From IMG/VR virus record IMGVR_UViG_3300022747_000017: a DNA stretch of 64,000 nucleotides; one strand, 5' to 3'. The translations under genes and the position numbers were made by a program. This DNA is from a virus. Below are positions 1 through 33,045 of the stretch, in pieces. Under the pieces are notes generated by a model that worked only from the letters and a program-made list of their open reading frames with translations, was not told the origin of the DNA and did no database searches. The stretch's first letter is position 1, and each line of letters opens with the position of its first letter.

Positions 1-20
1 AAGGCTCTTCGGAGCCTTTT
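1..20 (+). terminator. Rho-independent terminator
   Basis: AAGGCTC-TTCG-GAGCCTT hairpin followed by a T tract; identical 20-mer recurs at 13777-13796. Confidence 0.8.
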
Positions 21-25
21 CTCGG

Positions 26-31
26 TAAATA
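26..31 (+). promoter_or_regulatory. Putative late promoter (TAAATA)
   Basis: TAAATA also precedes 409, 33046, 39563, 42512, 56626 and (on the - strand) phoH; resembles the T4 late promoter core TATAAATA. Confidence 0.5.
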
Positions 32-35
32 CAAG

Positions 36-370
36 TTATTGCTGTATGAAGCAAAGAGAAAAGTGTTCTGGACGCGGGTTCGACTCCCGCCAGGTCCACC
101 AAAAGTATACTAGGCTCCATAAGCAGAAGATTCTAGATAATCTGCTGAAAGATGACCGAGTTTTAAGACTCAAATAGTATGCTTTTGATGGGCCTGACAT
201 TGGTTTTCGACAGGGCAACAAGTAAACAAGTGGACAGCACGGCAAAGCAGAAGCCGTAGGGTTGGGGTTTCCCGGCCGTAGACGCAAAAAACGTAAACGC
301 AAACGACGAACAGTTCGCATTGGCAGCGTAAGCTGACTTGGGTAGTTATACCTCGAAACAGAAACTAACA
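36..370 (+). ncRNA. ssrA: Circularly permuted two-piece tmRNA
   Basis: Acceptor piece ends in T-arm GCGGG-TTCGACT-CCCGC and CAGGTCC-ACCA (101); intervening segment 102-189; coding piece starts GGGCCTG (190), pairing with CAGGTCC including the G3.U70 Ala determinant; tag frame 299-331 encodes ANDEQFALAA*. Outer ends approximate. Confidence 0.93.
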
Positions 371-394
371 AAAAGCCCACTCCGGTGGGCTTTT
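371..394 (+). terminator. Rho-independent terminator after tmRNA
   Basis: AAAAGCCCAC-TCCG-GTGGGCTTTT. Confidence 0.85.
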
Positions 395-408
395 CTCTTA
401 AATACAAT

Positions 409-11210: not shown

Positions 11211-11284
11211 GCGCTAGAAACTGAATGGATAGTTGGAGCTTCTAAAACTCCGGGTAGCAGGTTCGATTCCTGTCTAGCGCACCA
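11211..11284 (+). tRNA. tRNA, best fit anticodon CUA (amber suppressor); Arg(UCU) is a poorer alternative
   Basis: GCGCTAG/CTAGCGC acceptor, encoded CCA, T-arm GCAGG-TTCGATT-CCTGT; anticodon stem GGAG/CTCC with C.A closing pair and loop TT-CTA-AA; 5-nt variable loop. Confidence 0.8.
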
Positions 11285-13309: not shown

Positions 13310-13481
13310 AATGTACCATAATAGTTGCTATTGTAGAACCCGTGGTGTTACAATTCAGCTACAGAGAATACAAGTGCTTTGCACTCGGGCAATTGGTAAA
13401 ATACGTTATTGACTTGCCTTGAACTGTATACTACAATTGATATAGCTGTAATTCAACTCAGCAATACTTAGGAGATTTTAA

Positions 13482-13748
13482 ATGTTTGATCTAAATACTA
13501 AAACTGGTAAGGCCTATAAGGCATTGGTTATCGACGGTGAGTCACTTACACAATCTGAAGCTAAAAAGCGTTTTGGCATCGGCAGCTTGAGCGCAGAAGC
13601 AACTCGCTTGCGTCAAGCAGGCTTTGCAATTTATGCAAACCAACGCAAGGCCAAGAATGGTGTTCATGTTACTGAATACCGCCATGGTAAGGCAAGCCGT
13701 AAGATCATCGCTGCTGGCTACAAAGCCATGGCAATGGGCTTGGCATAA
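13482..13748 (+). CDS. Small basic, probable winged-helix DNA-binding protein
   Basis: LTQSEAKKRFGIGSLSAEATRLRQAGF; strong promoter(s), AGGAG RBS and own terminator. Confidence 0.5.
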   Translation: MFDLNTKTGKAYKALVIDGESLTQSEAKKRFGIGSLSAEATRLRQAGFAIYANQRKAKNGVHVTEYRHGKASRKIIAAGYKAMAMGLA

Positions 13749-13776
13749 TTTTTTGGTTATATTTCTTTTAAAAGCT

Positions 13777-13796
13777 AAGGCTCTTCGGAGCCTTTT
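13777..13796 (+). terminator. Rho-independent terminator
   Basis: AAGGCTC-TTCG-GAGCCTTTT, same as 1-20. Confidence 0.85.
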
Positions 13797-13834
13797 CCTT
13801 TGACTTGTTAGCAGGTATAACGTATAATAATGGT

Positions 13835-14680
13835 ATGAGAGTAAACGTAATTTCCGACCTTCACCTAGAGTTTTCAGACTTAGAACTGCCGGGTGGAGAA
13901 GTATTAATATTGTCAGGTGACGTATGCGAAGTCAAGCACGTTAAAGCCGAGTACGATGTAAACAACATACTTAATGAAGGCGGCCCCAGCACAGGCAACT
14001 TCAAACGTATGGATCGTTGGACTCGTTTCTTCCACGAAGAGTGCAGCAAGTACGAAAAGGTATTTTACGTAGCAGGCAACCATGAGCACTACGGATATAC
14101 GTTTCATAAAACAGTGCCACACCTAAAAGACATGCTGCCCAAGAACATTACTGTTTTGGAAAAAGAAGCGTGTGAATACAATGGAGTATTGTTTCTAGGC
14201 GGTACGTTATGGACTGACATGAATAACTTTGATCAGTTGACACTGTATCATATGAAAGGCATGATGAATGACTATCGTCAAGTTACCATGTTAAATGAAG
14301 CCAAGAGTGTGTATCACAGACTGGTTCCTGAGCATACAACTACCGAACACGTTAAAACAAAAGAACTGTTTAAATTTTACCTAGCTGAAAACAGAAGTAA
14401 ACAAAATTTACCAGTTGTTGTGTTGACACATCATGCTCCAAGCAAGTTGAGTACACATCCACACTATGCAGATGACACCATTATGAATGGTGCATACAGC
14501 AGCGATCTCAGCGAGTTTATTCTGGATAATCCTGAGATTCGAGTATGGACACATGGTCATACACATCATACGTTTGACTATAACATTGGAGACACTCGTA
14601 TCATTTGCAACCCACGTGGCTATGCAGGACACGAGCAACGCTCAAACGAATTCGATCCAACCTATGGATTTGATATTTAA
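13835..14680 (+). CDS. Calcineurin-like metallophosphoesterase
   Basis: ISDLHLE, LSGD, VAGNHEHY, THHAP, HGHTH; promoter TTGACT-N17-TATAAT with ATG 6 nt later. Confidence 0.9.
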   Translation: MRVNVISDLHLEFSDLELPGGEVLILSGDVCEVKHVKAEYDVNNILNEGGPSTGNFKRMDRWTRFFHEECSKYEKVFYVAGNHEHYGYTFHKTVPHLKDMLPKNITVLEKEACEYNGVLFLGGTLWTDMNNFDQLTLYHMKGMMNDYRQVTMLNEAKSVYHRLVPEHTTTEHVKTKELFKFYLAENRSKQNLPVVVLTHHAPSKLSTHPHYADDTIMNGAYSSDLSEFILDNPEIRVWTHGHTHHTFDYNIGDTRIICNPRGYAGHEQRSNEFDPTYGFDI

Positions 14681-14722
14681 CTCGGGGTGAGTTATCTTAT
14701 TTTAAACTTTAAGGAAAATTAA

Positions 14723-15271
14723 ATGAAGAAAATTTTAGCAATTATGGCTCTGGCCCTTTCTGGTTCTGCTTTTGCAGTATCCTATGTTTCAGTTGACGTT
14801 GAAAACGTTTCAGGACGCCAAGGTACAGGCGATAGTACAGCACAATATATTCGTGCTGGAAAAGAAATCAGTGGAATCCAATATGGCTTACAAGGCCGTA
14901 CATCAAAGTTGCGAGACGGCACAGGCAGCTTTAGTTCAGTTGAAGTAACTGGTGCCAGCAATGCAGTTTCGGCATTTGGTGTCACTCCGTTTGTTGGTGC
15001 AGGCCATGACAATGGTAAAAATGGCGGACAAGGCTACAACTATGGCTTAGTTGGTGCAACAACTGGTGCTAAGATTGGCCCAGGTTTCTTGTTAGCTGGA
15101 GTTAAAACTCGCGTTGGCAGCACCGAGACTGTCAACACCAAGCAAACATTGGTATTCGGTACATATTCTATCCCAGTTACCAAGGACGTTTCCTTTAACT
15201 TGAATGCAAGCCGCTCAAGCCAAGACATTAAGGAAAAAGCAGTTGGCGTAGGCTTAGGCTTTAATTTCTAA
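14723..15271 (+). CDS. Outer-membrane beta-barrel protein
   Basis: Signal peptide MKKILAIMALALSGSAFA, alternating amphipathic strands, C-terminal GVGLGFNF. Confidence 0.75.
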   Translation: MKKILAIMALALSGSAFAVSYVSVDVENVSGRQGTGDSTAQYIRAGKEISGIQYGLQGRTSKLRDGTGSFSSVEVTGASNAVSAFGVTPFVGAGHDNGKNGGQGYNYGLVGATTGAKIGPGFLLAGVKTRVGSTETVNTKQTLVFGTYSIPVTKDVSFNLNASRSSQDIKEKAVGVGLGFNF

Positions 15272-15275
15272 ACTG

Positions 15276-15320
15276 TTGACTTTAGTTAACAAATTGCCTA
15301 TACTACGGTATAGGCTTTTT
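15276..15320 (+). terminator. Overlapping terminator and promoter
   Basis: GCCTATAC-TACG-GTATAGGC-TTTTT hairpin contains TATACT 17 nt after TTGACT. Confidence 0.6.
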
Positions 15321-15338
15321 TATGGCCAAGGAGATAAT

Positions 15339-15728
15339 ATGGCTACGTGGATAGGAAATACTTCAAATAATATCACAGTGAATGCAATTAGCGGAATATC
15401 GGGAATAGCACCATATGGTCCCGGCACCAGTAACAGTGCAACATGGACTAGTACTGCCGGGGGATATACTATTAATCCCACAACACATTCTACCAAGATT
15501 CACATCAATGAGAATGGAATTAGCATGGCAGAAGGCACAGACCTAATGATGGGCGCAACCAGTCTTAAAGACACATTAGCTGGTATTGAATCAAGATTAG
15601 CAATGCTAAAACCCAGTCCCGAAATCGAAGCAGAGTGGGAGGAATTAAAACGCCTCGGAGACGAATACCGTGCTTTGGAAAAAGAGATTCAGGACAAGAT
15701 GAAGTCGTGGGATATTTTGAAGAAATAA
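15339..15728 (+). CDS. Hypothetical protein with C-terminal coiled coil
   Basis: GGAG RBS; 129 aa. Confidence 0.7.
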   Translation: MATWIGNTSNNITVNAISGISGIAPYGPGTSNSATWTSTAGGYTINPTTHSTKIHINENGISMAEGTDLMMGATSLKDTLAGIESRLAMLKPSPEIEAEWEELKRLGDEYRALEKEIQDKMKSWDILKK

Positions 15729-17072
15729 CTTTAAGTTGTAAATTGCATTTCTGTTATAATACATACATATGAATAACACGGTATCCTTAAAGGGTGTAAA
15801 TCGGGCTCTTCTAGCGGCAACATGGTGTAACAACAACGTACCAACAGATGAATGGACAATGCAATTGTCCGCTACAATTTTTGCAGACGGAGATTATAAT
15901 TTTACATTTAGTAATCCAGATCATGCCAGTATGTTTGCTTTACGATGGCGATAATAAAACTAGTAGTACATGAGTTCACTATGGGTGATGTGGACGATCC
16001 CGAACTGTATGCAGCACAGCCACTATGGGAATGGCAACAAAGTGAAATAGGACAGTGGGTAATGGCCAATGCAGTAGAAACCCCGCAGTGGGGCCGATGC
16101 AATGACTATCATACATATCAACTTAAATTTAGAGTAACTGCACGTCTACAAGAACAAGATGCAACATTTTTCAAGTTAAAGTATGATAACTCTGTCAAAA
16201 AGTGAATGGGTTACAGTAAGTAACAAGCTCAAATCGGATTGGGCACACAAACCCAGTGTACTAATGATTCGAGAAGTTATGAAACGTGAACTAAGGTTTA
16301 CTACCCGAGAACATCGTTTTTGGAATCCGGGCATGTCCAACTATACCGAACTCATGTACTTGGATTTTTACGACGAACCGTCGGAGACCATGTTTAGACT
16401 TAGGTATCTATGATACCACGTGAAAGGTTTATGGTAGCCGAGATTCCCGGAGCAGGTGCCGAAATTTTGGTCATACTAATAGACTATCATTTCTGGTCAG
16501 ACAACATAGGTGAATTAATTGAGTGGTGCAGTCATCGTAATGCAACTACAGAGGGCATGACAGTTGTGCTCGGGGATGACTTAACGTTAACGGAATTCCT
16601 ATTGAGGTGGGCATGAAAGAATTTGATGGACACACATATGAAACTGTAGCAGACTGGCATCCTGTTATAATTCGTAACAAAGGTAATATGATGGATGATA
16701 TCATATTAAGGCCAGCGTGGCTCAGTGAGCATTGTCCCGATGCACACATGGATTACGATGCGTGGGTCTATGCCGACGATAATCTAATGGACAGCAACCA
16801 TCGCAGCATTTACTTCTTTCGCGATCCCCAAGTTGCGGTCATGTTTGCACTGCGTTGGTCATGAAATACAAACTTGAACGACTCAGGCGTAGGGTTAGAG
16901 TCAAGCATAATGTAGATGGATGGTCCCATGCACTAACCGAAGACGAAGCTGTAGAAATTACCAATTTGGTAACACAGCGCGAGCTCGGTACACGGATTGC
17001 ATACGATATCTGGCGCATGAAAGACAATGCTTGCGTTACATTGTTTATCCTGCACTGGGGTAATCAGTAAAA

Positions 17073-17118
17073 AGTACTACATTTAATAAAATCCAAAATG
17101 TGCTACAATTAGCACATG
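17073..17118 (+). promoter_or_regulatory. Internal array promoter, leaderless
   Basis: AGTACTACATTT...TGCTACAAT-N6-ATG; near-homologous promoter at 29104-29148. Confidence 0.6.
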
Positions 17119-18265
17119 AGTTATCGAATTGAACAAATCTGTCAGTCAAGATACTTTGAGCTGACTAAAAATCGCCATCGTAAAAGTAACAAGGTACACT
17201 ATCGTATCAATTTGATGGATTGGCCGTGGACAGGCATGCAGTCCTTTCAAGACCAAGTACGTGATACTGTAGATCCGACTCGTACCAAAAGTGGCCAATT
17301 TGGCTATCATTGGAAGTTTCGTAGTCGCAACGAAGCAGAGATGATGTACATGACTTTGATGTTGAAATTTGCATGACTTACGATGTTTGTATCAGCATTA
17401 AACGTGATCAGGTTCTCCCTGATGTTTTTACTTGGCTGCTGCATCAAGATTTATCCCAACACAAACACTGGGATTTCACTAAGCCAGACTATTTCAAAGA
17501 TGATTGGGATTACACATTTAAATTTGTGCGCGAAGCCGATGCTGCCTTGTTTGCGTTAAGGTGGGCATGATGACCGTAACTTATAAAACGAACCCGGGCT
17601 TTCCTGGTATTAACTTTCCCGTGTTGCATCGTGTGGTTTACGCACACACCATCGATGGTGTTCCGGCACAATGGCAAATCAGCTACAAGGATTATATAGT
17701 CAATTTGTGGTTAAAAGAAAACTGTCAGCATCCTTACTACCACAGCCCCGGGTATCTTAGAGAAAAGTTTATTGAGTTTGAAGACGATCAAGAGGCAATG
17801 CTATTTGCATTGAAGTGGGCATGAGTCATTTACCGCGCAATGGTCAATACGAGCTGTTTACCTATGCCGGGCGAACTCGTTGCTTTGACGACACAGACGA
17901 TGTTTGTGTTAAAGGATCACATGAAATGTTTGAGTGGTTACGTAAACAGCCCATTGAATTGTGCAAGCCAATGGACAATTCAAATACTGCGTTTTACCTT
18001 ACCCCTGAAATGTATCTAATTTGGAAGCTAAAATGGGCATGATTACACCCGGCGTTTTTGACACTTGGCATGTAATGACCGACCATCACCGTGCAGAAGT
18101 TCTAAGAGAAATCATCAGATGGTGCAAGGACAACGTTGCACTAAACGATCCTGCTGTGTCCTATCACTGCCGTAAGTGGGCATTTACATACGAGCGTTTT
18201 CCACGGCACACAAACTTTGTTTTTGATAGAGAGGCAGATGCATTAATTTTTGCACTGAAATGGGC

Positions 18266-18700
18266 ATGAAAAATAAAACAATTACCGTTGATCTCGAAAC
18301 ATGGGACGCCTTGACGCCAACGTTATTAAGTAATACTACTGGTGGGATCCATCCTGGTCAAATGATGATTTTCACTGCGGGCCGCCAAACTGGCAAGAGC
18401 AGCTTGTACATGAAAATGTTGAAAAATAAACTCTACAGTACCAACTTATGTAAAGAAATCTTTTTACCAATGCACCCCACGCCAAAGCCAAAGTACAAAT
18501 TCACACGTGCCAAGTGGTATGTTGCAGACTTGTGGAACTCAGACCACATAATGGACGAAGTTCGAGAGTGGTGTGTAGAACAGTTTGGGCCGCGAGTTCT
18601 TAATCCCGATGCATGGACACGTTGGATTAATCATATGAACAGTACATTTAGATTTCGTGATGAAGCAGACTATGTGTTGTTTATGCTGAAGTGGCTATAA
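18266..18700 (+). CDS. LRW cassette with N-terminal P-loop-like fragment
   Basis: GGIHPGQMMIFTAGRQTGKS (Walker A pattern) fused to PKYKFTRAKWY...FMLKWL. Confidence 0.7.
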   Translation: MKNKTITVDLETWDALTPTLLSNTTGGIHPGQMMIFTAGRQTGKSSLYMKMLKNKLYSTNLCKEIFLPMHPTPKPKYKFTRAKWYVADLWNSDHIMDEVREWCVEQFGPRVLNPDAWTRWINHMNSTFRFRDEADYVLFMLKWL

Positions 18701-21700
18701 TGCACATACATTCATATCTAATGACAAGTGCTTACCAGCCCAATGGTCCGCGTTGGATGGCTGCATTTACTAACAAAAACATAGATATTACTCAAGAGAT
18801 TCAACAGTGGTGCTATAATGCATTTGGTCCCCCGGGATTCAAAGTTAACACAGACGAAATACGTTGGACCGACAGTGCTGTACGCGGAGAAATCATATTT
18901 GGGCGAGAAGAAGATTTAATGCTTTTTATGTTAAAATGGCAAACATGACCAACATTCTAATAGACGCCCAAAACAACACACGCTTAGTTGCCATATTAAA
19001 GTGGTGCAACGATAAAGTGGGAGATTATTATCTCCACAATGGTCTATGGGACTGGGACTTTCAAAAATTTGAATCCGGCGATACGTCAAATTGGGGAATC
19101 GTTGTTAAGTTTAAAGACAAGAAACACGCTACCATGTTTGCATTGGTATGGACATGAATGATCAAGCATTAACTGCAATTCAACACGCTTGGGCTGAATG
19201 GCCCGCAATCAAGCACACAGTAGTTGACTTTGGATTCAAGGACTGGTGCAAGCGTGTGCATGGATTTGAGTATCGCCACTTCAACAGTGGGCAGGCAGTT
19301 ATTACCACTGTACTTGATGAGAAAAAGTATGCGTGGTTCTTGTTGAGGTGGTCATAATGTGGTATCCTGTAGTAACTGTTGCATGTCGTAATATCATTGA
19401 AGTGTCAGAGCGTCAGGAATGGGCAGAAGAGCATGGCATGATGCTGCTTAATCGCACTTGGGAAGTCATTGATAAACGACAGTATGTTACATTCAGCTTT
19501 CGACATGAAAAAGATGCTACAATGTTTGCATTGAGGTGGGCATGATTAAAGAAAACCGCGCAGTGCAAATTAATTCGATCTACCATACGATCCACGAACG
19601 CCTGCGGGAGTTCGTGGCAGAGACTCCTTGCCTGTACGTAAATGACGCAGATGCAGTTAACGTGGTGTGTCATTATTTCCCCTGCTGGCAGTATAATGGT
19701 GCTGCCCCGTTTGAAGAAGTCATGCTGTGGTGTGAAGAACATTTTGGGCGCGACTGGATTTGGAGATTTGAAACAATCTTTTTTAAGCACGAACGTGATC
19801 GTGCAGTATTCTTGTTGAGGTGGTCATGATTAAAGTAAACGTGGACGCAAAGTCTGATGACAGATTGACACAACAGTTGTATTGGTGTTTTGAAACTTTT
19901 GGTGACGATGCTCGCACATGGGATTGGGGTTTTGCTAAGTTTGACCGACGTTCCGGTACTAAAGAGCAATATCTTGAATTTAATCAGTGGGCTGTATATT
20001 TTAAGTTCGATGATGATGCCAAGGCATCTGCATTTTTATTGAGGTGGTCATGACAGTTAAACTTGAATTAAAACCAAGGACAAAGCGACCTTATTGGATT
20101 GATGTTTGTCCTCCACATAATTGGAGTAAGTCTGATGCATGGCATTGGTGCATTGCAAACTTTGGACACAGAAACAAAAAGTACGACAATCCTCGTTGGA
20201 CTGCAAAAATGAAATATAGTTGGGATGGTGAATTCAAGTTTCTCAACGAACAAGATGCTATGCTGTTTATGTTGAGGTGGAGTTGATGTATTACACAGTG
20301 GCTTTGTTTGATCCCAACGATCCCACAGAGGGGTCTCCACGTTGGTGGAAAAACTTCATACGTGCCAATCCTCCAGGAACCCGATTCAACATCAGTGTCA
20401 CTAACGATCGATTGATGGAATACTCAGCAAACTATGTAGTCACAGGCGGTCAGGGCGGTGACGTGCAGCGATATCTTGACTTTTATGATCAGCGAGCTTA
20501 TACTTGGTTCTTGTTGAGGTGGGCATGACAACTCTTTACATTTCTGAGAATTACGATCAAAGTCCGCAGGTGTACAAAAACTTCTATAAAGCAGTGATAG
20601 AACCCAAGTTGTTGGGCGGACGTGGTAAATTACTTAGTAGCAGTGTGTTTCTTGACGAGTATAATGCACGTTGGGATAACCCATCTAAGAGCATTGTGTT
20701 TGATACTGAGCAAGATTTAACTTACTTTATGTTGAAGTGGTCATGACCTATGTTAGAGACGGCAAGTGGTATGTGTTTAAGTATCAAGTATACCCTGGAG
20801 CAAAACGCCGATGGTGTATTCAAACTTTTGGCAGCACTACCTGGGCCGATACTTGGTACTGTTATGACGGCAATTTCTTTTTCGAAAATGAACAAGATGC
20901 TACAATGTTTACATTGAGGTGGGCATGATGATACCCGAGTATCGTAATCGAGTAGCTGTTGATGATATATTTGCCGACGATGGCGGCGAGCCAACATGGA
21001 CGAAGGTGATTATTCCAGAAGGAAGATATAACCAGAGTTCCAAAGAACGCCTCCATAGTGTAAGAACATGGTGTAGTGAGAATACTACACAGAAGTGGAG
21101 TAGTTATATTAGGGTGTTTTTCTTTGAGAATGAAAAAGATGCTACAATATTTACATTGAGGTGGGCATGATTAGAGTAATGATTTCCGACCATGGTAATG
21201 AGTCACCGTACATGTGGTGGTACAAGTTTATTGCGAGTGTCAAGCACGGCAAGTATGGCCAAACTGTGGAAGAGCGCATAGATGTTCTTAACACTGAACT
21301 AATGAATTGGTCTGCACAATTATGGCAAAATGAACCAGTACCTCATGAACTGGGTACTACTATCAGCAAATATCGTAACGTATATCTTGACTTTTATGAC
21401 GAGCAGGCGCATACTTGGTTTGTATTGAGGTGGGCATGATTGTAAAAGAGTATTATCAAAATATCAACTGTAACCAACCCAAGGACTACTTTGAGCGTTG
21501 GTATGCAGATGTGTGGGCACGCCGAATTGGAACAAAGATCGCACAGCCCGGAGTGTTGGCCCGTATTCTTGATGAAGAACTTGAATTGGTCGGTGCCACT
21601 TATGAAAATACACAGCGTGGGTATAGATTTGAAGTAACGTTCAATGACGAGCACGACTATACCATGTTTGTATTGAGGTGGTCATAATGATTGATTGGTT

Positions 21701-23464
21701 ACAAGAACCCACAGCACCAACTGCCGAAGAACAGGCCTTTGACAACATGTTTCATTACTTTCTTTTCAATAAAACTGGCGCCAAGAATGTAGCTGAATTC
21801 TATAGACAGAATGGAATAAAGGTCAAAGATAGTCAGGTAGTTTTTGACTCACCACAACATAGAACAATGTTCTTATTGAGGTGGTCATGAGTAAATTTAT
21901 TATTAATCCTAGTTACAAACGCATCGGAATTGACTTTAATTTTAATGCCGATGAATGGGATGAAATTTACCATTGGTGCGAGGATAAACCTGAATACGAA
22001 ACATATTCAACTGGCATATACTATCAGACTGAGTCAGATTTAACAGCATTTTTGTTGAGGTGGTCATGAATATCCAAGTAGAGCATCTTATAGACGGTTA
22101 CTACATTGCCGAGCTTGACGAGCCACCATATGGGCTTGGCAGTGACATGTATTACTCCAAGGATTTCCCGGACACAGACAATTGGTGTACTGAAACTTTT
22201 GGCTCGCAAGACATGTGGGGCGAAACTCCAGTGTCTGGATGGAAGCGCATGCGTAACAAATATTACTTTGTTACAGAATCTGCATGTGAATTGTTTGTGC
22301 TGAGGTGGTCATGAAACTACGTGTCGACATCCGCCCATACTTCCAGAAGATTGCAGATTACTATTGGGACAACATTGGGCATACCATACACCACACTGAG
22401 TCGCACATAACCATTTGGGATTGGTTACAACGCGACTATTCTGCGGTTAAGGTTGGACCAGTGGGTAGTAAACCCTCGCTATGGGTTTCATTCCCAGATG
22501 AACAACACATGACTATGTTTATGTTGAGATGGGCATGATTGAACTAGATGTAGTTAATTCCGGTTATGAGTGGGAGCCATGGTGGGAAAATTTTCATAAC
22601 TATTATTCTGAGCAAGGGTATAATATGAATTCCAATGAAGAAATCGCCCGGGCATTGTCTGAATGGAATGCCATTGACCCGGACCCCGAGTCCACTAAGT
22701 TCTATTTTGAAAACGAGCATGACTGCTTGTTATTCATGTTAAGGTGGGTATAATGGCAACAGAAGCGTGGATATTCATTGACGGTCAAAAGGTTCGTATT
22801 CCATTCACTCCGAACGAAGCTCCGGAGTTTGGCTGGTACTTGGGTGCAGAGTATAAGAGTGCCTTATATTGGGATGAACATGATTTTGAATCAATCAATA
22901 CATGGTGCAGACAGACTTTTGATCCGCACACATATAAAATGTTTATGAGAAGTGTGTGGTTCCTGCGTGAGCAAGATGCCTTGTTGTGCAAGTTGAGGTG
23001 GACGTAATGGCCGTTTCGATGACCAAGAAAATATTGAAAAAGTTTCCTGCAACTAAATGGGAGTTTGAATACAATCCTGCCCGTGAGCGTTGGGAAACTT
23101 ATCGCACGCCAATGGATTGGCCGTTTGGTCTGTATGGATGGTTATGGGCAATTGGTAACCCACTTAGTGATCTAGCAGGTACAGAATCCAGTGGGTGGGA
23201 CTATCATGGTGGTTGGATTTTCATCTATGATGAGAAGTTGGTTACAGCGTTTTTGTTGAGGTGGTCATGAAGATAACATTCAGACTACGTGGCGATGGTG
23301 TAGTTAACAGAACATTCACTAGAGCATGGGATCACGCCCTTGAGAAATACGTAAGGATTCATCCAGTAACCACATCATACGAGTGGAATTTGATTTGGTC
23401 CACTACACATCCCGGAAAATTGATTGGACCGCAACGGCGTGGGACGTACCAAGTTGAGATGGAA

Positions 23465-23887
23465 GAAAAAGATTACATGATGTTTTTGTTGAGGTGGTCA
23501 TGACACACCACCATAACCCCAACCTAGCAGCCAATGTAACTTACACTGGCCAGCAGATACTCATGCCCATGATCAAACAACTTACGCCCGCATTACTGGC
23601 ACATAGTATCTTGGGAGTACAACCCATGACGGGCCCGGTGGGTGAAATCTTTACTATGAAGGCTAACTATGGATACCAACCCAAATACAAGTTCAGCCGT
23701 GCCAAGTGGTATGAAGCAGACCATCGTTACGATGATTATGATGAAGTCATAGCATGGTGTACTGAACAGTTTGGGCCACGGCCTCGACGACCGGATGCAT
23801 GGACACGCTGGTGTGACATACACATTGACCGTATCAGATTCCGCGATGAAAAAGATTACATGATGTTTTTGTTGAGGTGGTCATGAC
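23465..23887 (+). repeat. 40-nt exact direct repeat at two consecutive cassette junctions
   Basis: GAAAAAGATTACATGATGTTTTTGTTGAGGTGGTCATGAC at 23465-23504 and 23848-23887. Confidence 0.9.
23500..23886 (+). CDS. LRW cassette with N-terminal major-capsid-protein-like fragment
   Basis: ILMPMIKQLTPALLAHSILGVQPMTGPVGEIFTMKANY resembles the conserved GVQPMTGP segment of T4 gp23-family capsid proteins. Confidence 0.75.
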   Translation: MTHHHNPNLAANVTYTGQQILMPMIKQLTPALLAHSILGVQPMTGPVGEIFTMKANYGYQPKYKFSRAKWYEADHRYDDYDEVIAWCTEQFGPRPRRPDAWTRWCDIHIDRIRFRDEKDYMMFLLRWS

Positions 23888-25363
23888 GTTCTTTCGTAAA
23901 GTAAAGATTCCCGAAGCATACGCCAGAGTGGAGTGGTGTCGTGCCACATTAGGCAAAGACGTCACTGGCGGCAACTGGTGGAGACATCGCGGACATCTGT
24001 ACTTTAAAGACGAACAGTGTTACACTATGTATGTGCTAAAATGGAGTTAAAGTTCTAATGGAATGCACTGAATATAGTCAAATTCGTAATGTAAAACATC
24101 TTATGAGAGTATTAAACAAGAAATATTGGCCCTATCACGTGACAGTCAACAACAACACCGGAGAACTGGAACGTTGGTGCTACGAAAACCTCAAGAGTGC
24201 AAACTGGCGCAACGTTGGTCAGTACTTTGCGTTTAAGCGTGGTGCAGATGCTACTATGTTTTCATTGAAGTGGTCATGAAACAGTACGGCATAGTCACTG
24301 AGCGTTGGCATTGGGAGAAGAAGTGGGAAGTTAAGTTGTGGCTTGTTGAAAACTTCGGAGTCAATGGCGACCGGTGGGGTGAAGAATTTGACTATGGACT
24401 TGAGAACTTGTGGATGAACGAAGATGTTTATTCTGCATACCTACTGAAATGGGGAACATAATGGTTTTCTGCGAAAAGGACCCTTACTACAAAAACTCAA
24501 ATGAATATTTTCGTAACAACATTGATCACTTTAAAACAGCCTATTGGACATGGATGATTGATAACTATAAAACTGTTCTATTAGACAAACAGGGCAGTTT
24601 TAACTCAGGCCCTGACCAACACTGGGCATTCAATACAGAAGAAGATAGAACATTTTTTATGCTGAAGTGGGGATAATGGAACAAGAACTCATTGAAATAA
24701 CTGTAGGAGCAAACTATAATAAACGTGCTGAGATATTTGCTTGGGCCAGAGAAACATTTGGAGACCAAGTGGAGCAGCATGCAGATTTTCCTATATTGTA
24801 CTTTCGCAACAAAGCAGATGCAGAATTTTTTATGTTGAGGTGGTCATGAACTCAAAGCAACGAAGACAAGACAGACGCAAATGGCAATACCATGTTTTAG
24901 TTTCTCCTGAAACACGTTACGCCAATGGGTACGATACCATGTGGGACTGGTGTCTTAAGAACTTTGGTAACAGCAAAAAGCAAAAGCACCACTGGAGAGA
25001 AAAGTGGGGACATATTGGCACACACTGGCAATTTACGTCAGCCGAAAGTGCTGTGTTGTTTACACTTACATGGTCATGACAAAATATACAAGAGATACTC
25101 TAATGAAAAAGGCACGAATTAGCGACGAGCAACTAAATGCAATATACAAGAAGTGGATCTCTCCTCAGTTACAAACTGGGTACCGCAGCCTTTACACTGA
25201 CGATATTAATCGTGTGAGTTTTCGCTATGGGCCCGGAAAGCAATTTGAGGACTATGTCTGGTCATGCGGGGGACGTATTGGAAAAGAGCATGGCAAGCGA
25301 TATGCTGAATTCTTTGAAGAAGAGGATTTAATTATGTTTACACTGAAACATATGTAATCTTGT

Positions 25364-25573
25364 ATGGAAATCACACAACGAATACATAATGGTTGCGATT
25401 GCTACCCATGGACTAAAACGTTTGCATTGTGGCCAGTTAAAACAATTGGCGGAAGATATGTGTGGCTACGTACAGTTTATAAGCAACGTTTTTGGGTAGT
25501 ATGGGGCATTAGCTTTCACATGGAGCCACACGTAGAATACGCAGAATTATTTGAAATATTAGCAAATGACTAA
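25364..25573 (+). CDS. Small protein, W-x-x-x-FA-W-x-PV family (copy 1)
   Basis: PWTKTFALWPVKTIGGRYVWLRTVY. Confidence 0.65.
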   Translation: MEITQRIHNGCDCYPWTKTFALWPVKTIGGRYVWLRTVYKQRFWVVWGISFHMEPHVEYAELFEILAND

Positions 25574-25856
25574 CAAAGTATTAGATTGGCGTCATTTGTT
25601 CTTGCCAATTAGACATGCCAAAGACGACTTTGAAGCAGAACATAACCGCAGTTATTTAGATCCTGATGCAAAAACATTCATTGAATGGCTAGATGTAAAC
25701 TATGGTATTACATTGTTCTTGTCTGACGATTTTCAGCATTTAGAAGACAGACTGGAAATCTCAGATGAGAAAAAGTATTTGCTTTTTATGCTAAAATACT
25801 CTACATGAACACCATTAACTTACTGGGGTGTCCTTAAGGACATCAATCCTGTTTAC

Positions 25857-26081
25857 ATGCAATTCATTGTATCAACACCATCGTCTATTAAAAAAGGCAA
25901 CACTGAGTTTCCGGAACTTCCGTGGACTGCGTGGTTTGCATGGTATCCCGTTAAAGTGCACGAACAGTACAAATGGCTAACCACAGTTGTACGGCGTCCT
26001 AATAACCGTGTGGGAGTTACTCACAAGGATTTTATGAAGTGGGAATATGGAGACATGTTTGATTTGCTAAAGGTGCAGTAA
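25857..26081 (+). CDS. Small protein, FAWxPV family (copy 2)
   Basis: PWTAWFAWYPVKV...KWLTTVVRR...EYGDMFDLLK. Confidence 0.65.
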   Translation: MQFIVSTPSSIKKGNTEFPELPWTAWFAWYPVKVHEQYKWLTTVVRRPNNRVGVTHKDFMKWEYGDMFDLLKVQ

Positions 26082-27205
26082 TGCAGGTGATCAAAACATG
26101 GATTGTACACCAGTGGTTACCTGATGACGCAGAGTGGTTTGTCCAACAGGGCATTCGTTACCACATTTCATCAAAACGCATACCTATTCATTCCGCAGGA
26201 GGATCACTACACTACGCCCAAGGACCCACAGAACTACGTGTGCAAACTAATACCGAACATCAAGAAACAGTTCTGCGTTTAAAGTTTGAACCTGGGTTGA
26301 CTCTTATGCAAATAGCAACAGTACCTGCTGAATGGGCATGATTGAATGGATCAAAGACCGCTGGCTTACTTGGCGTACAGGCAAGCCCAAGGCCCAACGA
26401 GAGTGGGAAGCATGGTACGAGGTTAATGTCGTCTATCGTGCTAGCACTATCAACAATATGTTCATGCACTTTAAGCATGTCATTATAGTTAGTCCCAACA
26501 AATTCTTTGATCTTTGTGAGCCATTTGCCTATGTACCATGCGAAGATGCTCGGCAATACTTCTGGCCTGCTCGTCCACTAGGTGAGAATGCCGTTTGGAG
26601 ATTTGAACGAGTTATGTGGAACCAATGGCAAAAGTGTTGGGACATTAATGGGCTAGGCGATAGAGATAAAGTGTTTGTGGCCACCAATAATGACGACGAT
26701 GCTATAATGATTTCATTGAAATACGCATAATGATGGAATACGAAATTGTTTTAAACACCGAGAAACAGCATGTCTATCGTGAGAGGTACGGTATAATGGC
26801 AGCGTTTGCTTGGGCCCTGGATAACTTTGGTTTACCGGGCCAAGCGGGTAATGACCATTGGATTATGACCGACCTAGGCCGGTTTAAATTTGCAAGTAAA
26901 GCAGATGCTACAATGTTTGCTTTAGTATGGGTATAAAAGGTATATGTAATGGAACTGTTTTATGGTGGTGGGGGAAATCAATTTCCTGACTTTAGATACA
27001 AGGTGCGTATCAAGCGAGGCTCGCCCGAAGTTAATGAGATGATGAAGTGGTGCGACGATTACCCAACTGGTGATAAGGGCTATTTTAAACGCTACTACAT
27101 TGACTGGCGTGGTGGCGAAAAGAAATACGGCGACAGTGAATATACCATATTCCAATTTGAATGGGAAGAAGCTGCTATAATGTTTGCATTGAAGTTTGGA
27201 GCACA

Positions 27206-27562
27206 ATGATGATGAGTGACACTGAATTTGCTGATTACCAAAGTCGTTACAATGACGACCCAGTTGTTCAACGGCTTTGCAAAATGATTTTCAATGATCA
27301 TCGCATTGAAGATTTAGAATACGAACTTGACCAGGCCAAGGACGAACTTGGCTATTGCGAACGTGAGCTAAAAGAAGCCCGTTACGAAATCAAGCAGCTA
27401 GAATCCCGTACAATCGAGGACATGGCAGCAGATTTAGTTAATCAGGTAGCAGCCGCAGAGAGACGTAGCCAAATGTATCGTGAAGAGAAAGATAACATAC
27501 TGGCCAAGAACAAAGAACTGCAAGAAAAAATCAACGTATGGACAGTAATGGAAAGAACATAG
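27206..27562 (+). CDS. Coiled-coil hypothetical protein inside the array
   Basis: Heptad-rich, lacks the LRW ending. Confidence 0.65.
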   Translation: MMMSDTEFADYQSRYNDDPVVQRLCKMIFNDHRIEDLEYELDQAKDELGYCERELKEARYEIKQLESRTIEDMAADLVNQVAAAERRSQMYREEKDNILAKNKELQEKINVWTVMERT

Positions 27563-29948
27563 CCCTGGGCGAAGGGCGTGTATATGGCGCAAGGTATCTA
27601 ACTGTGCGTCCGGAAATCTGTTGGGATCTTGAAAGCGGTGATTGGGGCAATTTAGAAACTTGGCCTAAAATGATTAAATGGTGTGGTGAAACCTTTGGAC
27701 CAACGCCCGAGGACGGCGTATGGACACCCAATGCACGGTGGTATGTCAATGATTCAAAGTTTTGGTTTCGCAGTCAACTAGATCTTACGTTGTTTCTTTT
27801 AATGTGGGCATGAGACCTGTAAAATATTGGTGTACAATTCCTGTCAGTGTACCATGGCGTAGCACCGGGCACTTTAGAGACCTGCGTATATGGTTGTTAG
27901 ACAATGTACCAAATCATGGTGACTATGAGTTTGCTGGAGTGGACTCGGATCTTCTCCCAAATAAAGACAATCGTGTATACTACTTTGCACACGAAGAAGA
28001 TGCTATAATGTTCTCATTGAGGTGGTCATGATACGTTTGGACATTATTAAAGGCTATGGACCTATTCACGTGTGGAACAAATTTATTGCACATCTGCAAA
28101 ATCAATTGGGAGACTTTGCAGTAATGTACACCGATGTTAATACCGCACTAGCCGAGTATCGTGCAGTTTATCACATGGAAGAGGTGGGCAACATATTTGA
28201 AAGTGATGTTCTACATTGGGTTGATTTCGAAGATGAAGAATTGTACGCTTGGTTTATGTTGAGGTGGTCATGACTAAAATCTATGCAGACATCTATCCCT
28301 ACTTCAAGAAGGTTGCTAACCACTATTGGGATGATCTATACAAGTCCAATATTAGTGTCTGGGATTGGCTTGGCCGTGAGTACGGTATTAGCCACACCTT
28401 TGGCAGTGCAGCCAGCCAGCAGATAGTGGTGTCGTTTCCTGATGAGAAAACACTCAATTGGTTCGTACTGAGGTGGTCATGATTGAAATTAAAATCAGCA
28501 AGAAACTTCGTAATGTATACGGAGAAAGTGGTACACAGGTCGCTTGGAAGTGGTGCTTGGATAACTTCGGGCCACCAGAACCAAACGGCAAGCGTTGGGC
28601 ATGGGACACTATGCGTACATTTTGGTTTCATAAAGAAGAAGATGCTACACTGTTTGCACTGAGGTGGATATGAGTAACACAGCATATCCTTATCGCGTAC
28701 GCTACCAACGTACTAGTCAATGGTATCCTAACTATGCAACCTACGGCGATGGCGATTGGATGAAAATTAGTCACTGGTGTGACCACTGCATCGGTAAGGG
28801 CAAGTGGGATTACTATTGGAGTGAATTTGTATTTGAACGCGAAGAAGACTACATGTTATTTAAATTGAAATGGTTGTGATATGATACGATGGGACGAAGA
28901 AACAAATCTATATTTACTGACTCTAGAAGAGTACAATCAATTGCCCGATGGCGTTGAACTTACTAGTATAGGTAACAACCGTTTGATCAAGGGCCGTGAC
29001 GTCATTGACACGGATCAACGTTGGGGATACCTTGCATACGGAATAGTTGATCCATGGAATCACCCGCTCAAAGATTTGTTTCTGTTGTTTAAACTAAAAC
29101 AATAGTACTACATTTTAAAAATTCAAAAAGTGTTACAATACAGCTATGACAACACAAATTAAACTTGATCGCAAACATCACGATCGTCTCGAAGAGATTG
29201 AAACTTGGGCCCGAGAAAGCATTGGGCTCGGCAGTCGTCGTTTTGTTAAAAATACCTGGATGGGCATTGAGGATTGGTATTACTTTGAAGAACGGGTAGA
29301 GCATGTTCCCGATCTTTCCGAAGAAGAAAAGACTGAAGGTGTAGTCCAGCACGTTGATGCAAGCGACGACGAGGACAGCGATTTGATCTTTGTATTTCGT
29401 CGCGAAAGCGATGCTATGATGTTTAGTCTTCGGTGGCAATGACCACCACTGTGTCATTTGGTAAACGCAAATACCATTTGCAAAACGAAATGATACGATG
29501 GTGCGAAGAAGCGTTTGGTATGAATCCAACCTACACTAATTGGGTGTTTGGCGAACCAGTGGACTGGACAGATCTAGGAAATTGGTGCGTGGCAAGTATG
29601 TTTGGTGAAACTCATTTTTATTTTAAGAATGACGCGGAGGCTAGTGCATTTATTCTAAGGTGGAAATAATGTCAACAGTTTGGAATGGTCCTTATAAACC
29701 AAACAATCCACGCACCATACATGGCGCACAAAAACGTGGCTGGCACGTAGTCCAAGTGCCACGCAATTATATGGATCGTTACGATATCACCTGGCTTGGC
29801 ATTGGACTGTGGGCATCAAGACACAGTAATGGTTACTTTCTTGATAATTTTTTACTTAGGCAATTTGCCTTCGAGCGGGACGAAGATGCAAGCAAATTCA
29901 TCTTTCAATTTGCACTTTGAAATAAGTGTGTTTTTACAAAAGGCACAT

Positions 29949-30143
29949 ATGGCAACAAAAGACAAAAGTCATATTACCTACAGCAATTGGGAACCATGGT
30001 TTGCATGGCACCCCGTAACAACAGTCAATGGCAATCGCATTTGGCTCAAAACAGTCTACAGACGATATCGTATGATATTTGGCATAGAAGACGACATGGG
30101 CTATTATTATGGCGACGAGTTTGACGTCCTTAAGACTACTTGA
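29949..30143 (+). CDS. Small protein, FAWxPV family (copy 3)
   Basis: NWEPWFAWHPVTT...IWLKTVYRR...YYGDEFDVLK. Confidence 0.65.
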   Translation: MATKDKSHITYSNWEPWFAWHPVTTVNGNRIWLKTVYRRYRMIFGIEDDMGYYYGDEFDVLKTT

Positions 30144-30174
30144 CATAGAATTGTATTAAATATACAATAGGATT

Positions 30175-30846
30175 ATGAAAGTCTACATCTCTAAATATCG
30201 TTACCATTGGACCAGTCCATACACTATTCTCAAGGCCATTTGCTTCTGGGAAAAAGATGATGACGTCTTTTACAATCACGAAGGGAAACCCGGGCACAAA
30301 TACACCAAGTGGGTTGAGTTTTTAAATCCAATCTGTGGCGCTATTATGCGTTTTCTAGACATTGTGCACCCAAAGATCGACTATGTAAAGATTGATAGAT
30401 GGGACACATGGGGCATGAATACCACATTGGGCATGATTGCATTGCCCATGCTCAAACAATTGCGGCAGCACAAACAGGGTGCGCCACTTGTTGCAGACGA
30501 GGATGTACCTGTAGAATTACGCAGCACATCCGCACCAGCTAGAGCAAATGAGTGGGACACAGATGACAATCACTTCAAGCGTTGGGATTGGGTCCTAGAC
30601 GAAATGATTTTTGCTTTTGAGCATACTCAAGACGACAGTTGGGAAGATAACTATCGCACAGGCGAATCCGACTGGAAATCCGAACCATGCGAATGGGACG
30701 AAAATGGCAAAGTTAAGATGTATAAAATGATTGATGGACCTAATCATACATACAAGTACGACTACGAAGGTGCCAAGCTAGTGCATGATCGTATTCAGCG
30801 TGGCTTTGAACTGTTTGGAAAGTATTATCAGAACCTCTGGGATTAA
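30175..30846 (+). CDS. Hypothetical phage protein
   Basis: 223 aa; promoter TTGACA-N17-TACAAT with ATG 6 nt later. Confidence 0.8.
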   Translation: MKVYISKYRYHWTSPYTILKAICFWEKDDDVFYNHEGKPGHKYTKWVEFLNPICGAIMRFLDIVHPKIDYVKIDRWDTWGMNTTLGMIALPMLKQLRQHKQGAPLVADEDVPVELRSTSAPARANEWDTDDNHFKRWDWVLDEMIFAFEHTQDDSWEDNYRTGESDWKSEPCEWDENGKVKMYKMIDGPNHTYKYDYEGAKLVHDRIQRGFELFGKYYQNLWD

Positions 30847-30847
30847 T

Positions 30848-31240
30848 ATGGACTTTGTTGCACTTCTTTCTGAGTTTGTGGGATTTTTATTTGAAATCCT
30901 AATGTGGATTATTTTCTGGTTTATCCTGTTTAGACTAGCGGACCGTTTTGTGTCAAACAAAATCAACTCTGCCGAAAAGGATGAACTCATTAACTATGTT
31001 GCAAATAGACTACATCGCATCAAGCAAGAAAAGCATGGCGAAGTCTATTACTGGTTTGATGCAGACACTGATGCCTTCTTAGGGCAAGGTAAGACTGACG
31101 ATGAAGTAAAAGAGCATCTCAAACAGCGTTTTAAAGGGCACGTATTCCTGTTAGATGATGACCGTGCACTTGCGGGCCCAGATTTAAAATTGACCCCAAT
31201 TAAAGAGCTAAAAATGCTCGACAAACACACAATCGCTTAA
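30848..31240 (+). CDS. Membrane-anchored hypothetical protein
   Basis: N-terminal transmembrane segment. Confidence 0.65.
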   Translation: MDFVALLSEFVGFLFEILMWIIFWFILFRLADRFVSNKINSAEKDELINYVANRLHRIKQEKHGEVYYWFDADTDAFLGQGKTDDEVKEHLKQRFKGHVFLLDDDRALAGPDLKLTPIKELKMLDKHTIA

Positions 31241-31260
31241 TTTTTTGCTATAATGTCCAT

Positions 31261-31653
31261 ATGACAATGCACCTAGCACATCCTTCACTTAGCTTGACTG
31301 GCAAAAAGAAGGGCAAAATCAAATTCAAGTCCGCAGAAGCAAAAGCAGCACACGAACGTCTCAATGACGAATGGCGTGCTATCAAAGAACGACACGGAGT
31401 CGAAGAGCATGAACGCAAGCGCCAACGTGCAATGACAGCAGAGCCGTTGACCTATAAGTTGTCTGCTCCTCCGGGTCGAGGCGCAACTGCACATATTCCC
31501 AGCCGTGACACAGGCGGTAATGCTACATTAGCGGCACCAAAAGTCTACACAGGCACTAAAGTAAAAGGCATTGCTACCATGCACAAGTCAAATGCTGTAC
31601 CTGTGTTTAGTGACGAAGAAGCTGTGGAAATCAGCCGTATGCGCCGTGGGTGA
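31261..31653 (+). CDS. Basic hypothetical phage protein
   Basis: 130 aa, leaderless promoter TATAAT-N6-ATG. Confidence 0.75.
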   Translation: MTMHLAHPSLSLTGKKKGKIKFKSAEAKAAHERLNDEWRAIKERHGVEEHERKRQRAMTAEPLTYKLSAPPGRGATAHIPSRDTGGNATLAAPKVYTGTKVKGIATMHKSNAVPVFSDEEAVEISRMRRG

Positions 31654-31900
31654 TTACTACTTTGAACTTGCTGATTGTGTAGTAGACCACTACAGTGGCA
31701 AATACTTTACAGTAACAAACAAAGACATTCTCGAACAGTTGGGTAGCAAAGACCTGATGCTGGTCCAGAACAGTGAACGAGTGTGGTGTGAAGAAGGTGC
31801 TGGGGTTCGTTATGTCAAGCATAGATACGGGAATATGTTTGCACCCGTTGATTTAAAAGAATTCATGTGGATAAAACTTAAAGCAAAGGAAATAAAATGA
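31646..31900 (+). CDS. Small protein, paralog of 32423-32716
   Basis: SERVW..G..GVR.VK ... FMWIKLKAKEI. Confidence 0.6.
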   Translation: MGDYYFELADCVVDHYSGKYFTVTNKDILEQLGSKDLMLVQNSERVWCEEGAGVRYVKHRYGNMFAPVDLKEFMWIKLKAKEIK

Positions 31901-32421
31901 AAACAACTAAACAATGGCTAGCAGAAGTCAAAGCAGATCCTGCAAAATTAACACAGTGGCTTGAGCGCCAATATATCGGAGAAGCACTTGCTGCCGACCG
32001 TATCAAGACCCTGGCTGCAACCAAACAAAATTCTCGACACGGTAAGCTACTTGACCGCATTGCCGCAGACGAATTTAAGCATGCCAGTTGGGTTGCCAAG
32101 TTGTTAGTGGATCGCGGTATTGCTATTCCTACACCCACAATGGAAGACACTCGTTACTGGGAACCTATCTTAGATAACTTGCACACCTTTGAAGAAATTG
32201 CAGGTGCAGGACATCATGCAGAAGTCATGCGATTAATGCGTATCACTGAATTGGCCAACGATGTTGAAATCGATGCAGATATCCGTCAAGTATTCAAACA
32301 GATTCTGCCCGACGAACAGTTTCATGCTAAAGCATTTGAAGCAATGAGCACCAAAGATGCCATTGACTCAACTCGCGAATTGCACAATATGGGACTCGAA
32401 ATGTTGGGATTAGAGGTCTAA
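31897..32421 (+). CDS. Ferritin-like di-iron protein
   Basis: Paired E...DExxH motifs: GEALAA / DEFKH and AEVMR / DEQFH. Confidence 0.75.
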   Translation: MKTTKQWLAEVKADPAKLTQWLERQYIGEALAADRIKTLAATKQNSRHGKLLDRIAADEFKHASWVAKLLVDRGIAIPTPTMEDTRYWEPILDNLHTFEEIAGAGHHAEVMRLMRITELANDVEIDADIRQVFKQILPDEQFHAKAFEAMSTKDAIDSTRELHNMGLEMLGLEV

Positions 32422-32422
32422 C

Positions 32423-32716
32423 TTGGGTTATTATACTTACTACTGCGAAGTTACGGCCGAGGATACTGGGTATAAACAGGGGGTCTATACTGTTACTACC
32501 CAGGATCATCTCTATGCCGAACGGCGTACAATGGGCTATCCATATTCTATAATTGGGTCTAGCAATAGAGTGTGGCGCCAAGGCCCCAAGGGCGGCGTAA
32601 AGATTGTCAAGGATCGAAATCATCATGCACCATATGTTTCTAGATATGTTACCAACGACAAACAGAAAATGGAACAGTTTATATGGATCAAACTGGTTGC
32701 AAAAGAATTATCATAA
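32423..32716 (+). CDS. Small protein, paralog of 31646-31900
   Basis: SNRVWRQGPKGGVKIVK ... FIWIKLVAKEL; TTG start after GAGGT. Confidence 0.6.
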   Translation: MGYYTYYCEVTAEDTGYKQGVYTVTTQDHLYAERRTMGYPYSIIGSSNRVWRQGPKGGVKIVKDRNHHAPYVSRYVTNDKQKMEQFIWIKLVAKELS

Positions 32717-32756
32717 GTAAACAGCGTAGATAAAGAAAGGAAAACGCAGTAACCCA

Positions 32757-32975
32757 ATGGCTAAAGAAGACCTAATTCGCATGGCAGGCAAAGTTGATGA
32801 AGTCCTACCGAGTGCGATGTTCCGAGTTAAACTCGAAAACGATCATATAATTACCGCTACTCTAGGCGGAAAATTACGTCAACACAATATCCGCATTCTA
32901 CTCGGAGATAAAGTAGAAGTTGAAATGAGCCCATATGACCTAAACAGGGGTCGTGTAGTGTATCGTAGCAAATAA
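32757..32975 (+). CDS. infA: Translation initiation factor IF-1
   Basis: [28 protein letters not shown]...[26 protein letters not shown]. Confidence 0.97.
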
Positions 32976-33045
32976 TATACCCACATAACTGCCAAAACCC
33001 TGCTTTACTTAAATCCGCTAAATAAGCATATAAAGGATTTGAGAT

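Follow-up and report, generated by a model that had tools for sequence, protein, structure and literature searches.

A capsid protein segment fused to an LRW module in a mini-gene family of uncultured freshwater jumbo phages

The gene at 23500..23886 (+) of the window, by which we mean the whole 64,000-nucleotide stretch of DNA analysed here, encodes a 128-aa protein whose N-terminal head shows homology to mature gp23-type major capsid proteins (MCPs), in their N-terminal segment, and whose C-terminal part, the LRW module, is shared with the surrounding mini-genes. It is a real gene under purifying selection, and the family to which it belongs is widespread in uncultured freshwater jumbo phages. 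As to its function, the reading that we favour, although with limited conviction and judging from sequence, is that the protein may be a mimic of unassembled or nascent capsid protein, occupying the partner of the corresponding capsid segment.

The gene call follows from the ORF listing and its translation (stop codon TGA at 23884-23886), and public contigs carry the same 128-aa call together with a precomputed PF07068 match. A GTG located two codons 5' of the ATG at 23500 is an alternative start, which is used by no homologue. The product falls into three parts, all encoded on the + strand: the capsid-derived head (residues 10-58, including GVQPMTGP; 23527..23673), a linker with a near-invariant KYKFSRAK motif that marks the module subtype (23674..23706; K64 Y65 K66 F67 S68 R69 A70 in an 83-sequence alignment), and the LRW module itself (23707..23883), delimited by AlphaFold2 and by homology to other cassettes, with a beta-alpha-beta-beta-alpha order and the motifs WC.EQFGP, PDAW.RW and FRDEKDY..F.LRWS.

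The earlier note had read a capsid peptide in the N-terminal part of this protein, and had made that reading depend on a profile match to gp23-type capsid proteins. The peptide is found at residues 20-57, and so is the match: the 128-aa protein scores 48.4 bits against Pfam PF07068 (Gp23), for which the gathering cut-off is 24.4 (E 1.2e-12), with residues 19-78 aligned on profile positions 4-58 of 376 only, and it also matches phrog_138, the major head protein family, with an E value of 1.3e-12. In a tblastn search, 2375 phage records were matched and, among the matches listed, all fall in the major capsid gene or its unannotated equivalent. With phmmer, residues 14-65 of the query align to residues 87-137 of the solved T4 gp23 (E 2.6e-6), at 43% identity and with the GVQPM core intact. 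Residues 10-58 are thus equivalent to about 87-137 of T4 gp23 and to about 48-98 of Rak2/121Q-type MCPs. Homology is confined to about these residues, and alignments to capsid proteins that reach farther are filler. Over residues 14-65 the protein is thereby homologous to gp23's Gol region, the Gol peptide being placed, as we take it, at gp23 93-122. The head appears to cover the segment running from near the mature MCP N-terminus to the start of the T4 insertion-domain linker. In T4 gp23 this linker spans residues 132-160 (PMC9546572). The GVQPM region, to which the head corresponds, is in the T4 literature the Gol/EF-Tu-binding region, described as having the highest conservation in gp23 (PMC3014915).

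This homology does not make the product a capsid protein, and the 128-aa protein is unable to be a capsid subunit. It lacks the full HK97-type fold, with its A domain and its P domain with spine helix, and the head is unable to form one, since it retains only some 50 of the approximately 400 MCP residues, the rest of the protein being a different, confidently modelled fold. AlphaFold2, run with the 83-sequence alignment, gives residues 70-130 a pLDDT of 87-94, in a beta-alpha-beta-beta-alpha arrangement, and models the head as helices with moderate confidence (pLDDT 53-76). Database names for the family are either hypothetical or 'Gp23 domain-containing', and as the protein is not a capsid subunit, the label 'Gp23 domain-containing protein' is misleading. 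Automatic labelling of family proteins of 110-135 aa as 'Gp23 domain' could confuse capsid-based annotation of metagenomes, since they share the GVQPM region, which is presumably the annealing site of the g23 marker-gene primers.

The second half of the fusion described in the earlier note, a KYKF...WC.EQFGP...LRWS module, is likewise present, fused in frame, modelled with a pLDDT of about 90 and homologous to the neighbouring cassettes, to which it is connected by blastp. The protein ends ...FRDEKDYMMFLLRWS, that is, with the C-terminal F.F..E.D...F.L(R/K)W motif which, together with a position in the coupled array, characterizes members of the LRW family. About 50 neighbouring mini-genes, lying at 15.8-29.7 kb and all co-oriented and translationally coupled, have this same module as their C-terminal end, and the resulting array (15769..29669, +; delimited from the ORF listing and homology) holds the capsid-head gene. 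At the upstream junction of the gene (23491..23503, +), direct reading of the sequence reveals a Shine-Dalgarno-like GAGGTGG at 23491-23497 followed by an ATGA start/stop overlap. Both ends of the gene have ATGA overlaps with GAGGTGG three bases 5' of each ATG, and the same junction recurs throughout the LRW array, with an equal arrangement in a relative (L005/G001). As GAGGTGG lies within the end of the upstream cassette, the LRWS codons of that cassette double as a ribosome-binding site.

The LRW module itself is absent from Pfam and PHROGs. A Foldseek search of the module against PDB gave no match at E <= 0.001, a wide VIA-align search reached a Z of 5.1 at best, for generic alpha/beta sandwiches, and an Atlas fold search returned viral hypothetical clusters and weak secretin/YajQ rows only; the module was placed in no fold family. 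No match to a typical headless cassette was obtained by tblastn among 50,697 phage records, and a search for longer fused forms yielded one 240-aa protein, covering the module half only. The array was seen in three metatranscriptome libraries, although RNA-library contigs are only a hint here, as transcription, its strand and its level are not provable from them. Over positions 14001-34000 of the window, contig depth in RNA library X3 was 58.7 at 14.4-17.9 kb, 8-16 at 17.8-28.3 kb and 54 at 28.3-34 kb, while depth in DNA run X2 was even (64-79) over the same interval. The uneven depth in X3 hints that transcripts are truly less abundant across the greater part of the array, contig depth being unable to rank genes. 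A promoter/terminator scan returned 39 promoter-like sites versus 43.6 expected, and 0 matches to the T4 late-promoter TATAAATA.

Homologues carrying both halves of the protein are numerous, with at least 257 proteins recovered in a length-restricted search (71-228 aa) at identities down to about 41%. Many of them show 92-98% query cover, 41-83% identity and a precomputed PF07068 match, on contigs of up to 364 kb. In IMG/VR we confirmed 217 loci, and the exact 128-aa protein occurs on 9 contigs from several samples. In the 83-sequence alignment, the columns conserved in at least 90% of sequences are P32, A36, I39 and G41-M45 in the head and, outside it, the KYKFSRA linker and the WC..FGP, PDAW.RW and FRDEKDY..F.LRW motifs of the module. 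Pairwise dN/dS against twelve relatives, where dS could be estimated, ranges from 0.07 to 0.26 for the head and from 0.08 to 0.16 for the module; dS is high (0.9-3.6), so that these figures are approximate, yet they are far from 1. Neutral decay among relatives, which the earlier note would have taken as evidence against its reading, is therefore not observed. By contrast, its term 'grafted', understood as a recent local event, is not supported, as the breadth of the family indicates that the fusion is old and widespread.

The same data bear on another explanation, namely that the gene is a non-functional scar, a chance chimera generated by illegitimate recombination in a hyperplastic region. 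Two copies of a 43-nt direct repeat (repeat search, family D1) flank the gene exactly, one at the 3' end of the preceding cassette (23462..23504, +) and the other at the 3' end of the capsid-head gene (23845..23887, +). As these copies bracket the gene and are identical at 42 of 43 positions, they show that cassette ends recombine. One 346-nt contig of a metatranscriptome library connects 23464 with 23848 over the repeats, and the capsid-head gene is precisely absent from it; the contig may reflect a deletion variant that exists in nature or an assembly path (k=31) running through the exact 40-nt repeat. The flanking repeats, the recombination-prone cassette ends and one contig lacking the gene precisely between the repeats speak for a scar. 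However, a chance chimera would not leave full-length homologues in such numbers, their divergence excludes assembly duplicates of one sequence, and both halves show low dN/dS. In addition, the frame is intact, the gene is translationally coupled and it is better conserved than most neighbouring cassettes. We thus consider a scar extremely improbable and effectively refuted by conservation and dN/dS.

The phage has no close cultured relative: megablast of window positions 22000-26000 against 50,697 phage records gave no match, while the sequence was found in several freshwater metagenomes. The window codes for a DNA ligase, NAD-salvage enzymes and tail-fibre-like proteins. ARAGORN also reports, at 11211-11284 (+), a tRNA that it labels tRNA-Pyl and whose anticodon is CUA (amber-reading), and a tmRNA-like gene at 9-422 (+) with the tag peptide ANDEQFALAA. 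Complete relatives are G001 (364 kb, with terminal repeats) and G003 (382 kb), both of which have a protease-scaffold-MCP block resembling that of Escherichia phage 121Q and Vibrio phage 2.275.O. The capsid-head gene is 79% identical in DNA to its counterpart in G001 and is one of only three cassettes still alignable between the two phages. Extra Gp23-like small ORFs were nevertheless found in only two of the five large relatives searched; at the fetched loci, the remaining three (one 99% and two 74-81% complete) carry a KYKF-type module without the capsid head. The capsid-head gene is thus accessory among relatives. The LRW cassettes of G001 are distributed in two opposite-strand arrays (G001:C1 51.4-57.5 kb, +, and 200.3-204.3 kb, -), versus a single 14-kb array in the window, so that array organisation is fluid between relatives. 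G001 has a second capsid-head mini-gene (L089 1471-1842, corresponding to G001:C1 13480-13851, +), which lies outside both LRW arrays and is directly followed by an overlapping 366-aa ORF.

No second capsid-like sequence was found within the 64-kb window, the phage's own capsid gene being located outside it, and capsid genes were compared using relatives G001-G005. The full MCPs of relatives are 391-398 aa long, and the MCP segment matching the head is near-invariant across 121Q, the Vibrio phage and G001-G005. The head is 41-45% identical to the MCPs of related jumbo phages over 42-49 aa, and in G001 the orthologue of the capsid-head gene and the phage's own MCP share only 41% identity across a stretch of 46 residues. 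When heads are compared in a fixed 38-residue register, their identity is 42-66% to Rak2/121Q-type MCPs, against 29-42% to T4 gp23. Being closer to Rak2/121Q-type MCPs, the heads therefore derive from the resident capsid lineage and not from a T4-type competitor. The head has since been evolving under constraints of its own.

This origin has consequences for another explanation, in which the head would insert into, or cap, the capsomers of a co-infecting phage's gp23-type MCP and thereby poison assembly as a dominant-negative. The conservation of the segment across the whole gp23 superfamily would give such an agent a broad reach, and its unlikeness to the resident MCP could spare the phage itself. 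In expanded T4 heads, the segment also takes part in contacts within and between capsomers, as N-arm/N-fist (PMC9546572). Yet the heads resemble T4-type MCPs less closely than they do the resident MCP type, a piece of about 50 residues is devoid of the P and A domains needed for joining a capsomer, and poisoning hundreds to thousands of MCP copies needs very high expression. A dominant-negative role accordingly appears highly unlikely to us.

The capsid segment is not restricted to one type of module. At the fetched loci it heads, in equal register, at least five LRW module subtypes, and for several of them the window contains a headless counterpart. The KYKF subtype with a capsid head is represented by the gene at 23500-23886. 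The YWPY subtype has a capsid head in L054 and L069 (headless window counterpart at 24058-24279, +, E 7e-18), the HFLK subtype in L078, which is G003, and L079 (counterpart at 22753-23007, +, E 3e-10), and the HMWK subtype in L073 and L089, the latter being G001 13480-13851 (counterpart at 17821-18042, +, E 2e-4). An unnamed subtype bears it in L076, for which a headless counterpart was not found in the window. As headless cassettes of the window have capsid-headed homologues in other phages, the head is combinatorially tied to module subtypes, and its recurrence on different modules argues that the segment itself is selected. The heads of the KYKF and YWPY subtypes share derived residues missing from the MCP, for example AHSI before GVQPM, which point to head shuffling after capture, whereas the L076 and HFLK heads are nearer to the MCP and may be later captures. 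Moreover, hybrids (P0162, P0184 and P0045) combine a capsid head with the module variant of a window paralogue located at 18260-18700. Since its capture, recombination at conserved ends of cassettes has carried the head from one module subtype to another.

One may ask whether the capsid origin of the head still matters. It could have been exapted without any mimicry, and now serve only as the N-terminal helix or partner-binding surface of its subfamily. Its divergence to about 42% identity from the resident MCP, its modelling by AlphaFold2 as helices, versus a strand-rich conformation in the MCP, and the unrelated or degenerate heads borne by sister proteins of the same module subtype are all consistent with this possibility. 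On the other hand, the positions that are invariant in the head are largely those that are invariant in capsids (GVQPM, P, A, I-R), and the segment recurs on at least five module subtypes. Finally, other cassettes bear hyper-conserved motifs of essential proteins, which is hard to explain if origin is irrelevant. On balance, we hold exaptation without mimicry to be unlikely.

Two such cassettes provide examples. The first, in the 382-kb relative, carries a piece of the capsid spine helix (L088 1390-1725, -, corresponding to G003:C1 about 351050-351385): its first 48 residues match MCP residues 153-208 at 39% identity, and Pfam Gp23 profile positions 136-219 with an E value of 5.5e-9. The second is the KYKF-subtype paralogue at 18260..18700 (+) of the window, identified by alignment, whose head consists of a P-loop piece and a ribonucleotide reductase (RNR)-like 'NLC.EI.LP', without the capsid segment. 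It belongs to its own conserved family of 89 proteins, with the head motif IY.SNLC.EI.LPTK. The best match of the family profile among 198 ORFs of G001 is to residues 437-455 of the RNR large subunit (E 0.0017), and phrog_3987 (RNR large subunit) gives an E value of 0.0021. The motif is probably, although this is not proven, the RNR active-site loop. The P-loop piece gave a DnaB_C match at E 0.012, below the cut-off. A terminase origin of this P-loop head, also considered, is unsupported, the only matches being sub-threshold ones to DnaB_C/AAA.

The earlier note had proposed that the array captures pieces of essential virion genes. The capsid segment on at least five subtypes, the spine helix and the RNR loop/P-loop agree with the capture of pieces of essential genes. 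However, only one of the 51 cassettes in the window, the capsid-head gene, has a significant Pfam or PHROG family match, so carrying pieces of virion genes is not a general property of the array. A more ambitious version, which we regard as decidedly unlikely, is that LRW arrays are display libraries, in which a common scaffold would present hyper-conserved peptides of essential phage proteins (capsid N-arm/Gol segment, capsid spine helix, RNR active-site loop and P-loop) as trigger mimics. Such mimics would saturate, mislead or inhibit host immunity that senses phage proteins via short motifs. The capsid-head gene would be their founding and best-conserved example, and recombination at self-similar junctions of cassettes would exchange heads between modules.

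What the segment does in an assembling capsid suggests a further possibility. In T4, residues 66-105 of gp23 are disordered in the unexpanded head, where they point inward and probably contact the scaffold, and they form the N-arm and N-fist after expansion; gp23 substitutions A94V and G97S alter head length, and Met98 contacts the portal whisker (PMC9546572). The capsid-derived head might thus bring the LRW module into proheads, where the protein would be internal or ejected; alternatively, it might adjust how the capsid is assembled or how large it becomes. The flexible location of this region inside the unexpanded shell with its probable scaffold contact, the length mutations and the portal-contacting residue lying in the segment (PMC9546572), and a head that begins near what we expect to be the mature MCP N-terminus would all fit. 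Several observations nonetheless make this reading unlikely. The head lacks the propeptide proper, on which scaffold binding mainly depends. In the first 45 residues there is no T4-type L/I-x-E cleavage motif, and glutamate is absent from the first 48. Nor is there a T4-type targeting peptide (about 10 residues ending in L/I-x-E), which is a weak negative as the specificity of the phage's own protease may differ. In G001 the gene lies far from the capsid module (about 201 kb versus 283 kb), in an accessory array, and about 50 other cassettes have no such head.

We return to the reading that we tentatively favour, mimicry of unassembled or nascent capsid protein. Capsid proteins are major triggers of bacterial immunity (Lit, CapRel and several Avs families), and Lit cleaves EF-Tu at Gly59-Ile60. 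Both Lit and CapRel detect the MCP via short motifs (bioRxiv 10.64898/2026.01.04.697583). The head, displayed on a soluble scaffold outside the HK97 fold, keeps the residues conserved in capsids. This retention, together with purifying selection and repeated placement on scaffolds, suggests that it may still bind the partner of the authentic segment. The likeliest partner would be a host factor, or an immune sensor monitoring it, with EF-Tu and a Lit-type protease, or another capsid-sensing system, as candidates. Once this partner is occupied, capsid-triggered abortive infection would be blunted or pre-empted, and both inhibition and activation are conceivable.

Several facts run counter to mimicry. 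In T4, the isolated Gol peptide activates Lit and does not block it, so that in a host with a Lit-type system a Gol-like head could be detrimental to the phage, except if its binding did not bring about activation. In addition, the head and the resident MCP have different residues at about 55-60% of positions, and the head is thus not an exact mimic. Furthermore, the gene is accessory among relatives, and the pLDDT of the head is only 53-76. A complex prediction for E. coli EF-Tu with head residues 3-68, run without controls, gave a score of 0.00, which counts neither way.

Whichever partner is involved, the family constitutes a natural experiment, in which a linear capsid segment is under purifying selection outside any capsid fold. 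If phages keep a capsid look-alike peptide on purpose, it possibly occupies whatever normally recognises new capsid protein. We know of no phage-encoded counter-measure made from a piece of capsid protein, and our literature search found neither such a counter-measure nor anything relevant on capsid-fragment fusion proteins or capsid-fragment decoys in phages. The capsid-head family may best be described as mosaic accessory mini-genes combined with molecular mimicry, with a smaller chance that it represents a display library of trigger mimics, which would be categorically new.

Among known systems, a close counterpart of the head is Gol, which spans 29 residues of the gp23 region with the highest conservation, binds EF-Tu domains II-III and licenses Lit cleavage (PMC3014915). 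The likeness consists of the alignment to gp23 87-137 with the GVQPM core kept. Gol, however, sits inside a capsid protein, whereas here the segment is part of a separately encoded, free-standing protein and is fused to an unrelated domain. Similarly, the gp23/gp24-type capsid and vertex proteins (PF07068, HK97 fold) are homologous over profile positions 4-58, but the 128-aa protein has no P-domain sheet, spine helix or A domain.

To our knowledge, none of the anti-defence proteins directed against sensors of structural proteins is derived from the trigger protein. The proposed logic is shared with DSAD1, a small phage protein that reportedly counteracts DSR2, a recogniser of the tail tube protein (PMC11087589): in both cases, a small phage protein would hinder a host sensor of a conserved virion protein. 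The candidate decoy described here differs in being a literal copy of part of the trigger.

A dominant-negative rival would have functional analogues in P4 Sid, SaPI CpmB and PLE TcaP, small proteins that disturb capsid assembly of another element. Their binding sites are on the outside of the helper's capsid or on its scaffold; they are not capsid fragments, and no similarity was found between them and the 128-aa protein. As for genomic setting, T4-like phages have hyperplastic regions with small accessory ORFs, which resemble the LRW array in consisting of dense, co-oriented and coupled mini-genes that vary between relatives. The LRW array differs from them in that its approximately 50 paralogues share a C-terminal module that also encodes the ribosome-binding site of the next gene, and in that some of their heads are recognisable pieces of essential phage proteins.
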